64,000 nt of DNA from Candidatus Omnitrophota bacterium (GTDB taxonomy: Bacteria; Omnitrophota; Gorgyraeia; JABMRN01; RBG-13-46-9), in the NCBI GenBank assembly GCA_013203315.1, contig JABMQJ010000012.1, positions 6,402 through 70,401 of the forward strand. The letters run 5' to 3'. A program made the translations under genes and the position numbers. This document shows, piece after piece, positions 22,027 through 43,101 of the stretch. Positions within the stretch are counted from its first letter, which is position 1. Every line of letters begins with the position of its first letter. The notes beneath the pieces were generated by a model. The model did not search any database. It was not told the DNA's origin and was given only the letters and a program-made list of their open reading frames with translations.

Positions 22027-23037
22027 ATGAAAAAGAATAAAACACGAAAAAGAAAACCGCGTGAAGATCAAAATAGCTATAAAGTAGTTATTTCTGATTT
22101 AGGCATGAGCCCGTTTCGCATTATGCGCGCCTCTTTTGTGTTAATGGGCATACTTCCGCTTCTTATCATCTTCTACATAATCGTAGGACGCAAATTTCTT
22201 TTTGATATTTTTCTGGGGACCAACGGCCTGATAGCGTTTTTTGCTGTCATGATCTCGCTCATAGGATTTGTGTATGCTTACACTCTTATTGCGAATATGA
22301 TAAGAAAACTAGTCGTGTATTCTGCCGAACGCAAGCAAATAGACGAGGAGAAAACCGAACTACTTCTTGCGGTAAGCCATGATTTAAAAACACCTTTAAC
22401 CATACTTAAAACGGGAATGCGTAATCTCACCGACGGTATCGGTGGGGCTCTAAGCAAGGTTCACGTCGGAGTGGCCGATCACTGCCTTCGCGCCGTGGAC
22501 AGGATAAACCGTTTTATAGATGAACTTTTGGACTTCTCCAAGGTGGGTTTCATGAGAACGAATATAAAGCGCGACCTGATAGACCTCGGCGAAATGGTAA
22601 AGAATGAGGTAGATGCGATGTCTGATCTTGCCAGAGAGAACGGGCAGGATCTTCGGGTTAAGATTGAGGCCAAAGACGCAAAAGTATGGGCTGACGAGAA
22701 AAAAATGTCAAGAGCGGTCATGAATCTTCTTTCCAACGCCATAAAATATACCCCGAAGGGCGGCAAGATTAACGCGACGGTATCCACTGATGAAAATACC
22801 ACGAGATTCACGCTAATAAATACCGGTCCCGGAATTCAGCCAAACGAATTAGATAAAATATTTAAAAAATACGAAAGGCTTGACAGGCATTCCGATGTAG
22901 AAGGCACGGGGCTTGGGCTTTCTATCGTAAAAGAAATAATGGATTTACACAAAGGCCGCCTAACCGTAAAAAGCGAACCCGGCAAAGAGACAGAATTTGA
23001 TCTAATTCTACCCAGAGACTTACGAGAACGAGTATAG
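22027..23037 (+). CDS. Membrane-anchored sensor histidine kinase (2 TM, HisKA, HATPase_c)
   Basis: TM segments FVLMGILPLLIIFYIIV and LIAFFAVMISLIGFVYAY. H-box SHDLKTPLT. N/G boxes NLLSNAIKYT and GTGLGLSIVKEI. Confidence 0.8.
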   Translation: MKKNKTRKRKPREDQNSYKVVISDLGMSPFRIMRASFVLMGILPLLIIFYIIVGRKFLFDIFLGTNGLIAFFAVMISLIGFVYAYTLIANMIRKLVVYSAERKQIDEEKTELLLAVSHDLKTPLTILKTGMRNLTDGIGGALSKVHVGVADHCLRAVDRINRFIDELLDFSKVGFMRTNIKRDLIDLGEMVKNEVDAMSDLARENGQDLRVKIEAKDAKVWADEKKMSRAVMNLLSNAIKYTPKGGKINATVSTDENTTRFTLINTGPGIQPNELDKIFKKYERLDRHSDVEGTGLGLSIVKEIMDLHKGRLTVKSEPGKETEFDLILPRDLRERV

Positions 23038-23061
23038 CGATAGCAGAAAGGCTATCTCCAT

Positions 23062-40686: not shown

Positions 40687-41556
40687 GTGGAAAAGAAGAA
40701 AATATTAATTATCGAGGATGACGAAGACTTACTAGAAGTTCTGCAAGTGAGGCTCTCCAGCCAGGGATACGAAGTTCATACGAATATAGGTAAGAGGGAA
40801 GTTCTCCGGGAGATACGAAGCATATGGCCGGATCTTATTCTTCTTGATATAACATTGCCTGAAATAAGCGGCCTGGAAATAAAAGCGGAATTAAATAAAA
40901 ATACTCATACCGCCAGCATTCCTGTAATATTTTTAACCGGCAAAGACTCGGTTTCCGATAAGGTGAAAGGCCTTGGGCTCGGCGCGGACGATTATATAGC
41001 GAAGCCATTTGACTCAAAGGAGCTGATGTCTCGGATTGAGGCCGCGCTAAGACGGAGAGGTTTTTACGAAGAGATTTCCATGACTGACGGCCTTACGGGG
41101 GTGTATAATGTGAAATTTTTTCAAAAACAGATTACATTATTTTTTAATATAGCCAAAAGATATAAAAAGATATTTGCGCTTATAATCATTGATATCGATA
41201 ATCTGAAAGACATAAATGATACATACGGGCACCTGGCAGGCGATTTTATTTTGAAAGAATTTTCTTCATTAACTAAAAAGACATTGAGAAAATCTGATAT
41301 ACTTGCAAGATACGGAGGAGATGAGTTCGCCATTATTATGCCTGAGACTGACGAAGAGCATGCCGCTTACGCGATTGACAGGTTAAAGCAGAACATAAAC
41401 GGAAAGCCGTTTGTATTCGGGGATAAAAAACAGGAGTTAAGATTTAACATTAGCGTTGGTATGACGACCTACAGGGACACGCTAACAAGCGAGCTCGAAA
41501 TGTTCGGGGAAGCCGACAAAAAGCTCTATCGGGATAAGCATAAAGCGAGTAAATAA
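40687..41556 (+). CDS. Response regulator-diguanylate cyclase (REC-GGDEF, PleD/WspR-like). Intact GGDEF and RxxD I-site.
   Basis: GTG start. Receiver ILIIEDDEDLLEV...LLDITLPEISG. GGDEF domain with RYGGDEFAIIMPE and I-site RKSD. 289 aa. Confidence 0.9.
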   Translation: MEKKKILIIEDDEDLLEVLQVRLSSQGYEVHTNIGKREVLREIRSIWPDLILLDITLPEISGLEIKAELNKNTHTASIPVIFLTGKDSVSDKVKGLGLGADDYIAKPFDSKELMSRIEAALRRRGFYEEISMTDGLTGVYNVKFFQKQITLFFNIAKRYKKIFALIIIDIDNLKDINDTYGHLAGDFILKEFSSLTKKTLRKSDILARYGGDEFAIIMPETDEEHAAYAIDRLKQNINGKPFVFGDKKQELRFNISVGMTTYRDTLTSELEMFGEADKKLYRDKHKASK

Positions 41557-43101
41557 ATGACGAAACAAAGGGAAACCTGGAACTCGCACTGGGGCATGAT
41601 AGCGGCAATGATAGGCACGGCTATCGGGCTCGGAAATATCTGGCGATTTCCGTATCTTTGTGGAAAATACGGCGGGGCAACATTCTTAATTCCTTATATT
41701 ATTTTATTATTCGGCGTTGCGATCTTTGCCATGATGTGCGAATGGGTGCTCGGCCGCCACACAAAAAGGGAACCGCTCGGCGCGTTTGACAAAATAAAGT
41801 TTCCTTTCGGACGTGATATAGGTGCCTGGGGGATCGTAGGACCGTTTTTCCTTTACTCCTATTATATAGTTATCACAAGCTGGGTTTTATTTTTTGTCTT
41901 TGCCTCGTTTGAAGGGCTATATTTCGGAAAAAATACGGAGACTTTTTTCGCCTCGTTTTTAGGAAGCAAATGGATATTTCTGGCGCATTTTGCTGCAGTG
42001 TGCATTACAAGCGGCATCCTGGCGATGGGCGTACAGAAAGGTATCGAACGAGCCTGCAAGATAATGATACCTACATTGTTCGTGCTCCTTATTGTTGTTG
42101 TGATTAGATCTGTTACGCTTCCCGGGGCAAATGAAGGCATAGAATTTTACATGCGTCCGCGCTGGGGAGGCCTATTAAACATAGAGACATGGGTTGCCGC
42201 TCTCGGGCAGGTATTTTTTACTTTGAGTCTTGGCATGGGGGCGATGCTTCTTTACGGCTCTTACATGAAGGATGAGTGGGGAATACCCATGAACGCGATT
42301 AGCGTGACGCTCGGCAATACCTCGGCCAGTATTTTAGCCGGTTTTGCGATTTTTCCTGCTGCCTTTGCGCTAGGATTTGGTGCAGTAATAGGTGGTGCAA
42401 AATCTATCGGCCTTACATTTTTTGTTTTACCAAAGGTTTTTGAAGTCATGCCGGGCGGGCACTTTTTCGGTGGAATATTTTTTATCCTTCTTGCGTTTGG
42501 TGCCATATCGAGTGCGATAAGCATTCAGGAGCCGGCCATTGCATGGCTAAAAGCCGAGGTAGGTTGGTCGAGAAAAGAAGCGGCTCTCTTTACCGGGATT
42601 ATACTTTGGATTATGGGGCTACCTTTTCTGCTCAACGGCTTTGTTAAAGGCGGGCTTGGCGCGAAACTGGCGCTTCTTTCAAAAATGGACATAATTATTG
42701 GGCAGCTCGCAATCCCCATATTCGGGATTTTAGCGATCATTGCCGTCGGATATTTCATGGGGGACCGCGGTTTCGACGAGATGAACAAAAACGCGCGGGT
42801 TAAGCTGAGTCACACGTGGATTAAATTCTGGATAAAGGCAATCGTGCCGATATTTGTGGCCATACTTTTTATTTTAACACTTTTGAAGATATTACAGGAA
42901 AACGGCGTTATCCCTGCAATTATCCTGCCTGCAAAAGAAATAGGGTTTACCCCTATCGGCATAACGCCGATGACCGTATTCATGATAATATTCGTATGCG
43001 TTGTTTTCTGGGGAGGATTTATTTATACTACAGCGAAGGTATTGACGATAGAAAAAGATAAAAAAGCGAGGGTGAAACGTGGACTTGCGCATTCTCGCTA
43101 G
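41557..43101 (+). CDS. Sodium-dependent transporter, SNF (neurotransmitter:sodium symporter) family
   Basis: 514 aa. N-terminal WNSHWGMIAAMIGTAIGLGNIWRFPYLCGKYGGATF signature. 11-12 TM. Confidence 0.85.
   Translation: MTKQRETWNSHWGMIAAMIGTAIGLGNIWRFPYLCGKYGGATFLIPYIILLFGVAIFAMMCEWVLGRHTKREPLGAFDKIKFPFGRDIGAWGIVGPFFLYSYYIVITSWVLFFVFASFEGLYFGKNTETFFASFLGSKWIFLAHFAAVCITSGILAMGVQKGIERACKIMIPTLFVLLIVVVIRSVTLPGANEGIEFYMRPRWGGLLNIETWVAALGQVFFTLSLGMGAMLLYGSYMKDEWGIPMNAISVTLGNTSASILAGFAIFPAAFALGFGAVIGGAKSIGLTFFVLPKVFEVMPGGHFFGGIFFILLAFGAISSAISIQEPAIAWLKAEVGWSRKEAALFTGIILWIMGLPFLLNGFVKGGLGAKLALLSKMDIIIGQLAIPIFGILAIIAVGYFMGDRGFDEMNKNARVKLSHTWIKFWIKAIVPIFVAILFILTLLKILQENGVIPAIILPAKEIGFTPIGITPMTVFMIIFVCVVFWGGFIYTTAKVLTIEKDKKARVKRGLAHSR

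Follow-up and report, generated by a model that had tools for sequence, protein, structure and literature searches.

The question raised by this locus is how a chemotaxis-type methyltransferase, CheR, comes to stand in front of a type IV pilus gene cluster that encodes none of the usual partners of CheR. The cluster occupies positions 22027-43101, between truA and rplM-rpsI, of a 64-kb stretch of DNA from a Candidatus Omnitrophota bacterium (64,000 nucleotides, hereafter the window), which is itself part of a 74-kb metagenome contig (JGI 3300032608). The original prediction read the cluster as a new combination in which methylation by CheR, a histidine-aspartate phosphorelay and cyclic di-GMP (c-di-GMP) converge on one pilus assembly machine. 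Comparison with relatives, which are referred to below by locus number, leads to a different verdict: the locus belongs to a known kind, the chemosensory system that is coupled to a type IV pilus, and is a decayed form of it. The explanation that we favour, and consider probable, is a type IVa-like pilus cluster under the control of a kinase and its receivers, with a CheR left behind by a deleted chemosensory operon. The underlying gene inventory was sound, every domain call in it being reproduced with Pfam and NCBIfam profiles.

The CheR gene (24951-26465, on the + strand like every gene of the cluster) encodes a CheR SAM domain (PF01739, E 1e-58) followed by TPRs, and its product belongs to a large, well-conserved Omnitrophota family of CheR-TPR proteins of about 500 aa. 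The absence of CheA, CheW, methyl-accepting chemotaxis protein (MCP) and CheB was confirmed for the window by tblastn and domain search. Queries with the CheW, MCP, CheA and CheB of a relative returned only receiver, HATPase and dCache pieces from the window. The CheA of L177 found receiver and HATPase pieces alone, the sole MCP match in the window paired dCache with dCache, no MCPsignal domain was present there, CheB was not recovered from it, and CheW was missing from it except for 16 initial codons contained in a 59-aa open reading frame (ORF) downstream of cheR. Among the features tested as defining a chemosensory system of the Tfp/ACF class, CheR was found and CheA, CheW, MCP and CheB were not. 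The window fails four of the six features and is therefore not a member of the class but a derivative of it.

Relatives show what CheR-TPR normally accompanies. In every retrieved context of an orthologous CheR-TPR (49-73% identity), CheW-CheW-MCP come next; the order CheR-TPR, CheW, CheW, MCP is seen in L174 and in L178, where CheR is 73% identical to that of the window. Two longer contexts, both with CheA, extend the picture. L176 reads PilB-like ATPase-receiver fusion, CheR-TPR, CheW, CheW, MCP, CheA-REC, REC, CheB, REC, big kinase, REC. The whole 18-kb contig of L177 reads PilZ protein, CheR-TPR, CheW, CheW, MCP, CheA-REC, REC, CheB, REC, small kinase, big kinase with pseudo-GGDEF, four receivers, PilB, PilC. 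In gene order, L177 is the window's layout with its che core complete, and the ancestral layout was CheR-TPR, CheW, CheW, MCP, CheA-REC, CheY, CheB and REC directly upstream of the big-kinase core.

The 59-aa ORF (26468-26647) separates CheR-TPR from the big kinase and matches the REC profile at positions 74-111. It had been called a REC fragment, a description that misses its chimeric nature. Residues 1-16 (MKLTVFTLKDKEYGVD) are identical at 14 of 16 positions to the N-terminus of CheW1 in L178, and their best match in L174, L176 and L177 falls exactly at the CheW1 start codon. Residues 24-43 (DAVDAVKARKMGADDYYAKT) are identical at 19 of 20 positions, spanning DAVDAVKARKMGADDY.AKT, to the C-terminus of the L177 pre-kinase receiver (8748-9113), which lies between CheB and the kinases. 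In tblastn the ORF matches the pre-kinase receivers of L177 (E 8e-12) and L176 (E 5e-10), and it is at most 37% identical to any receiver in the window. These matches make the ORF a deletion scar in which cheW1 codons 1-16 are joined to about the last 40 codons of the pre-kinase receiver. A single in-frame deletion (about 6.6 kb, measured on L177) fused codon 16 of cheW1 with the last receiver at about its codon 78, removing cheW, cheW, mcp, cheA, cheY, cheB and most of that receiver, and leaving an orphan CheR-TPR and the 59-aa ORF. Given the cheW::REC chimera and the intact operon in relatives, the presence of CheR without a che core is explained by deletion. CheR without CheA, CheW, MCP or CheB is not, then, a new wiring. 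CheR methylation had been proposed as a newly added input, but CheR-TPR is what is left, as first gene, of the complete che operon still found at this position in relatives.

The contig L090, a sister lineage, has gone one step further and has lost CheR too. Its proteins are 77-96% identical to those of the window, and everything but CheR is kept. At the cheR site it carries a 58-aa ORF composed of CheR residues 1-14, a 16-codon piece corresponding to CheR residues ~47-60, and the same receiver tail; the DNA alignment of the window with L090 shows blocks corresponding to these pieces. Which genes are present, how their order is conserved and how the deletions proceeded are shown by these data.

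Downstream of the scar lies a set of genes whose order has been preserved more widely. A scan of a genome collection for PilB gave 80 loci, mostly distant ones from Armatimonadota or Verrucomicrobiota that were uninformative, and close relatives only in L010 and L011; the closest PilB among species-level genomes is that of the Omnitrophota metagenome-assembled genome L010, at 75% identity. A metagenome scan with a PilMN alignment, whose N-terminal patterns were unselective, added close matches only in L094 and L095, and three informative sets (L090; L091/L092; L094) came from retrieving the contexts of big-kinase homologues. The window itself has near-identical copies in three Logan assemblies, and its exact proteins, found there and on the JGI contig, are assigned by NCBI to Candidatus Omnitrophica. 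A core consisting of a kinase with pseudo-GGDEF, three to four receivers and pilB-pilC-pilins-pilMN-pilO recurs in four lineages (window/L090, L094, L091/L092 and L177) with different flanks, PilB identity among them falling to 56%, and the intergenic gaps in the kinase/receiver/pilB stretch measure 0-30 nt. L090 retains the protease, big kinase, four receivers, PilB, PilC, pilins, PilMN, PilO, PilP-like protein and GAF kinase. In L094 (PilB 82% identical) a dCache-HAMP-PAS-GAF-PAS kinase with a GGDEF-like tail is followed by three receivers, PilB, PilC, the 69-aa protein, pilins including the lectin-fused form, PilMN, PilO and a PilP-like gene, and then by BacA, ThiF and serine dehydratase, with no GAF kinase or cyclase. 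In L091/L092 (kinase 44% and PilB 58% identical to the window) the order is OprB porin, kinase with GGDEF-like tail, three receivers, small kinase, PilB, PilC, pilins, PilMN, PilO.

The linkage of a degenerate-GGDEF kinase and several CheY-like receivers to pilB and pilC, as originally proposed, is thus seen in four lineages. The longer order suggested for a synteny check, CheR-HK-4xCheY-pilBC, survives in part: the kinase, three to four receivers and pilBC are kept, CheR is lost in L090, and in relatives che genes lie in between. The kinase/multi-CheY/pilB module is conserved, and it is undescribed in the Omnitrophota literature searched (a preprint and PMC10066038): a term search met no mention of chemotaxis in either paper, nor of CheR or two-component control in the preprint, and two-component control was absent from the 12 passages retrieved from PMC10066038. 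A paralogous arrangement was also noticed at L093:8449-12727: a dCache-HAMP-PAS kinase, 51% identical and without a GGDEF tail, precedes genes for a 71-aa PilN-like protein, PilO, a PilP-like protein and a receiver. Neither an ATPase nor pilins lie near it, and DUF5752 and TreT genes come next, as at 15389-17295 of the window.

The big sensor kinase (26662-29910, 1082 aa) has the architecture dCache-HAMP-PAS-PAS-HisKA-HATPase-partial GGDEF, with membrane segments flanking the periplasmic dCache domain and, by Pfam, no MCP-signal or methylation-helix domain. In its C-terminal domain GGDEF is replaced by TGDLI, with RRAD five residues upstream; this degenerate pattern is conserved, RxxD being kept in most orthologues. 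The domain is catalytically dead and retains the I-site. A degenerate active site combined with a retained I-site is the SgmT-like configuration, and c-di-GMP binding by the kinase is a prediction from it. The four tandem single-domain receivers, each of about 125 aa (29938-30312, 30331-30714, 30716-31093 and 31111-31485; Response_reg E 1e-25 to 1e-29), all possess the acidic pocket (DD), phospho-acceptor Asp, Thr and Lys. Three to four receiver genes occupy the same place between kinase and pilB in L090, L091, L094 and L177. We also observe a 730-aa PilB-like ATPase (MshEN + T2SSE) fused in frame to a C-terminal receiver at L176:7782-9974, directly upstream of the CheR-TPR/che operon; its receiver resembles REC3 and REC4 of the window.

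The genes that follow make the locus a type IVa-like pilus gene cluster, with a PilB-type ATPase, PilC, class III pilins and PilM/PilN/PilO. The ATPase (31488-33182; T2SSE E 7e-141 + MshEN) has its true start two codons 3' of the GTG start. The platform protein PilC/GspF (33182-34402; T2SSF in two stretches) scores about equally with the PilC and GspF models. After a 69-aa protein with two hydrophobic segments (34421-34630) come the major pilin (34646-35104; N_methyl, KKKG/FTLIE), a GspI/PilV-like minor pilin (35121-35477; GTG start at 35121, MKNNG/FTLLE), a GspJ/ComGF-like minor pilin (35479-35997) and a PilX/GspK-like minor pilin (35990-36790; PilX_N + F5/8 type C lectin domain). The class III signal peptides read KKKG/FTLIE, NNG/FTLLE and KKG/ITLIE, and the PilX/GspK-like pilin lacks E5. 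The lectin-fused pilin is also present in L090 and L094, and its domain suggests a sugar-binding pilus tip, in keeping with the part in attachment that has been proposed for the type-4a pili of Omnitrophota (PMC10066038). The 69-aa membrane protein holds the same position between pilC and pilA in L010 (42%) and L094 (61%) and is absent from the otherwise near-identical L090.

A PilM-PilN fusion (36804-38396; PilM_2 E 6e-36 + PilN) and PilO (38416-38943; PF04350 E 9e-9) are followed by a candidate PilP/GspC-like protein of 143 aa (38945-39376) with an N-terminal membrane anchor and a C-terminal beta domain. Its gene follows pilO in L090, L094 and L093 and would accordingly count as part of the conserved cluster. 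Position, size and topology fit PilP; the assignment is weak, the protein giving only sub-threshold T2SSC/GspC matches (E 0.006 in Pfam; E 3e-5 and 7e-4 in NCBIfam, far below the cut-offs), no match in a PDB profile search, and a poor AlphaFold single-sequence model (predicted local distance difference test score 59.6). The description of the pilus as secretin-less holds for the 64-kb window only: domains of secretin, PilT and prepilin peptidase (PilD) were not found in its + strand ORFs of at least 110 aa, nor was a PilQ secretin found in the gene tables and ORFs scanned of L090, L091, L094, L176 and L177. A Gram-positive origin was considered as the cause of the missing secretin and rejected: the organism belongs to the Omnitrophota, which we take to be two-membraned members of the PVC group, and a relative has an OprB porin gene beside the cluster (L091/L092).

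Elements related to c-di-GMP occur at several points. Profile NF053729 (c-di-GMP_motif) matches the PilB N-terminus at residues 9-59 with 51.7 bits (cut-off 38), and the region contains two 24-residue motifs with an exact 5-residue spacer. The REC-GGDEF protein (40687-41556) exhibits all features of an active diguanylate cyclase: GGDEF, the I-site RKSD five residues upstream, an intact receiver (D54/T84/K105) and 157.7 bits against TIGR00254 (cut-off 37.4). It is preceded by a cytoplasmic GAF histidine kinase (39376-40686; Pfam). The GAF kinase is present in L090 at 92% identity; in L094 neither member of the GAF-kinase/REC-GGDEF pair follows the PilP-like gene, and an orthologue of the cyclase (57%) belongs to a PAS-kinase/REC/REC-GGDEF operon of L180, away from pili, on a contig with no che or pil genes called in the 14.6 kb retrieved. 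The pair, which had been counted among the inputs converging on the pilus, is a lineage-specific neighbour of the conserved core. PilZ-type proteins were also encountered: a PilZ-domain protein (E 1e-8) at L177:3-812, immediately upstream of CheR-TPR, and a weak PilZ-like 67-aa ORF preceding pilB in L011. The PilZ protein heading the L177 cluster fits a c-di-GMP input in the family.

These parts suggest how the favoured explanation, a kinase-controlled pilus with a leftover CheR, might operate. The dCache domain of the big kinase would sense an external ligand in the periplasm, and the kinase would phosphorylate some or all of the four receivers, as HK1 (the kinase gene at the start of the cluster) and the GAF kinase probably also do. 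The receivers, devoid of output domains, would act by protein contact on the pilus motor. PilB would be their most likely target, because the receivers always lie immediately upstream of pilB and a PilB-like ATPase is fused to a receiver in L176. Under the GAF kinase, REC-GGDEF would make c-di-GMP, to be read at the N-terminus of PilB by its MshE-type motif and possibly, by analogy with SgmT, by the I-site of the kinase pseudo-GGDEF. The lectin-tipped pilus would serve attachment, and CheR would be left without a substrate encoded at the locus.

Several observations weigh against this explanation. CheR shows no decay: the window protein keeps 85 of the 88 columns with a conservation of 95% or more across the family (controls keep 86-88), E125Q in the GxGxEEPYS region being among its changes. 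CheR-TPR is intact while orphaned from its deleted operon, and it may still be functional, acting for instance on receptors encoded elsewhere in the genome. One of the samples containing this species (L179, Logan SRR28106079) has a second CheR-TPR, 73% identical and possibly from another genome, with CheW next; a receiver precedes it and a CheW-like start follows. The pilus operon of L010, the nearest species-level genome, has no kinase or receiver upstream and is preceded by saccharopine dehydrogenase and a small HTH protein, so coupling of kinase and receivers to the pilus is common, not obligatory. For the proposed step from receivers to PilB, the support is gene order plus a single fusion protein. 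At four positions the PilB motif pair departs from the relaxed consensus (PMC5013675), with S at position 1, Q at position 21 and E at position 24 of motif 1 and R at position 3 of motif 2, and the affinity of this predicted motif for c-di-GMP could be low or absent. Finally, the ATPase passes the GspE cut-off (664 bits against 630) and just misses that of the PilB model TIGR02538 (651 against 676).

This last point opens the way to a different identity for the machine, a type II secretion-like system with a short pseudopilus in which PilMN, PilO and PilP are equivalents of GspL, GspM and GspC. The major pilin scores best with GspG, there is a resemblance to GspI, GspJ and GspK among the minor pilins, the only matches of the 143-aa protein are weak ones to GspC models, and the window has no PilT. 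Yet the PilM-PilN fusion passes the cut-off of TIGR01175 pilM (144.7 bits against 133) and has PilN, PilO is matched, and neither GspL nor GspM is; GspD is lacking, the GspC-like protein has no PDZ domain, and the lectin domain of the tip minor pilin would suit a fibre that is exposed and adhesive. Seymour et al. (PMC10066038) moreover class these Omnitrophota systems as type-4a pili and report their expression in V. archaeovorus. We regard a secretion system as unlikely. An equally slim chance goes to the signalling and pilus genes being mere neighbours with unrelated targets in a compact region coded on one strand. All annotated genes of the 64 kb do lie on one strand with short gaps, another kinase/receiver pair is embedded amid glycolysis genes (2478-4040), the L010 operon lacks kinases and the orthologue of REC-GGDEF resides in a non-pilus operon. 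Chance adjacency would nevertheless have to account for the order pseudo-GGDEF kinase, three to four receivers, pilB being kept in four lineages with differing flanks and PilB identity down to 56%, for the 0-30 nt gaps and for the PilB-receiver fusion.

Least probable of all, and hardly to be expected, is a purpose-built system in which CheR methylates a non-MCP target and joins three kinases, five receivers and c-di-GMP in driving a pilus that works without secretin. It would accommodate the intact CheR-TPR, the place of cheR as first gene behind a conserved promoter-like site shared with the kinase, receiver and pilBC genes, and the lack of MCP, CheA, CheW, CheB and secretin in the window. 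But the cheW::REC chimera shows that the che core was deleted, not absent by design; orthologous CheR-TPRs always precede CheW-CheW-MCP; CheR is gone from L090 while the rest remains; MCP-signal and methylation-helix domains are both lacking in the big kinase; and a secretin may be present elsewhere in the genome. A bolder extension of the favoured explanation, to which we give somewhat more credit than to any of these alternatives while still considering it doubtful, holds that a phylum-typical and hitherto undescribed pilus control unit exists, in which a chemosensory array, a dCache kinase sensing c-di-GMP through its pseudo-GGDEF domain and a diguanylate cyclase feed three to four CheY-like proteins that gate PilB directly. 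The window lineage would then be a natural che-core deletion mutant, with CheR-TPR persisting through an acquired or original second substrate outside the classical receptor array.

The remaining genes of the cluster vary between lineages: the protease, GxW protein, HK1, GAF kinase, REC-GGDEF and SNF transporter are not constant. HK1 (22027-23037), a lineage-variable accessory, is a membrane histidine kinase (HisKA + HATPase_c) whose two membrane segments, with hydrophobic residues 29-65 and 67-92, enclose no real periplasmic loop; a full-length orthologue (49%) adjoins a receiver in L174. The GxW-repeat protein (23062-24072), of unassigned function, has a repeated G-x-W pattern, no signal peptide and no family above cut-off in Pfam or NCBIfam, DUF7926 giving a sub-threshold match; a 3'-terminal fragment 95% identical to it is present at the start of L090. 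A homologue (40%) was also seen at L091:4279-5172; in the distant L091/L092 contigs it precedes the kinase/receiver/pilus cluster by 5 kb. The retropepsin-like protease of clan AA (24036-24806; gag-asp_proteas, Asp_protease_2) has a DTG motif and an N-terminal signal anchor, is predicted to be exported, and scores 52.7 bits against TIGR02281 (clan_AA_DTGA), under the cut-off of 57.95; its gene is found in L090 and not in L091, L094 or L177. The SNF-family sodium symporter (41596-43101; PF00209) closes the stretch. No functional link of the symporter to the cluster was found, and it is probably a mere neighbour. Like the GAF-kinase/REC-GGDEF pair, the protease, GxW protein and SNF transporter are lineage-specific.

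The best sigma-70-like matches on the + strand fall in intergenic gaps, a placement that is suggestive of promoters and no more, as counts of promoter and terminator matches in the window are no higher than in shuffled sequence. One (21968-21996) lies in the gap after truA and before HK1. The candidate promoter of the cheR-to-pilC unit (24836-24864; TTGACA-17-TATACT, 11 of 12 consensus matches) is a consensus match inside the 144-nt gap before cheR, within a 38-nt stretch that is identical in L090 while the surrounding DNA is ~81% identical. A further match (34586-34615) is not in a gap but inside the last part of the 69-aa gene, shortly before pilA, and another (43278-43306) precedes rplM-rpsI. 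Both flanks carry housekeeping genes, with gap, pgk, tpi, secG, an opp transporter, trehalose genes, leuCD, leuB, asd and truA upstream, and rplM, rpsI, arg genes, lysA, dap genes, panC and nadA downstream. The annotated set, defined as + strand ORFs of at least 110 aa, covers the whole 64 kb with short gaps, and GC skew is positive along 1-64000. The cluster is indeed co-directional, as had been stressed, but since all annotated genes of the 64 kb lie on the + strand this carries no weight by itself. Scans of the window for tRNAs and with Rfam gave no matches. Two side observations concern the upstream flank. A histidine kinase (2478-3641) and a single-domain receiver (3657-4040) lie between gap and a glycogen synthase gene, amid glycolysis genes, and at 15389-17295 a DUF5752 gene stands beside a TreT-type trehalose synthase, downstream of OtsA and OtsB, so that two trehalose routes may be placed side by side in this region.

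The Omnitrophota have not been cultured; most are ultra-small, and they are believed to use type IV pili for attaching to other cells or preying on them. The kinase/multi-CheY/pilB module, and its intact form with the che operon in front, provide concrete candidates for host or surface sensing in this phylum. The window offers a clean example of regulatory decay: the deletion scar is dated, CheR is orphaned, and a sister lineage has moved one step ahead. It also carries a warning: an orphan CheR without MCP need not imply new biochemistry.

Among known systems, one of the closest counterparts of the intact relatives is Pil-Chp of Pseudomonas aeruginosa (pilGHIJK-chpABC), whose composition we take to be, like that of L176 and L177, one MCP, two CheW, CheA-receiver, CheR, CheB and at least two CheY-like proteins beside type IV pilus genes. 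Compared with it, the window has lost MCP, both CheW, CheA and CheB, its CheR carries TPRs, a separate dCache pseudo-GGDEF kinase and four extra receivers intervene between the che genes and pilB, and no FimL, FimV or CyaB-type partners were seen. The claim that the locus is neither Pil-Chp nor Wsp is right in that the che core is gone from the window; it should read that the locus is a decayed system of this type, whose operon is intact in relatives. CheR-TPR fusions are typical of non-flagellar chemosensory clusters (PMC3447774, PMC2535941). Wsp and other ACF-class systems (WspC) and Frz of Myxococcus (FrzF) share CheR-TPR with the locus and, with its relatives, also two CheW and a CheA-receiver hybrid. 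The counterpart of WspR would be REC-GGDEF; unlike in Wsp, the entire pilus operon stands between it and the che genes, it comes with a GAF kinase of its own and it is not retained along with the cluster, and the che core is gone from the window.

The c-di-GMP elements have parallels of their own. SgmT of Myxococcus xanthus is a kinase that binds c-di-GMP at the I-site of a degenerate GGDEF domain, and the big kinase resembles it in a C-terminal GGDEF domain without the catalytic motif, in the retained RxxD and in the link to type IV pilus-dependent behaviour (PMC3509222). The two differ in that SgmT has a GAF sensor, a receiver domain and a DNA-binding partner, DigR, whereas the window kinase is of dCache-HAMP-PAS type, adjoins output-less receivers and is only predicted to bind c-di-GMP. 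MshEN domains bind c-di-GMP (PMC5013675), and the ATPase of the window is like MshE/PilB-type ATPases in its two 24-residue motifs, its 5-residue spacer and its passing of the NCBIfam cut-off; it differs at the four substituted consensus positions, which include the first Arg of motif 1 and the Gly of motif 2. A further parallel is found in the type-4a pili of Omnitrophota themselves. According to Seymour et al. (2023, PMC10066038), these pili co-locate with F-type ATPases, none of which is found in the window; they occur in nearly all genomes and are proposed to serve host attachment, and they represent the same kind of pilus cluster, in the same phylum, as the one analysed here.

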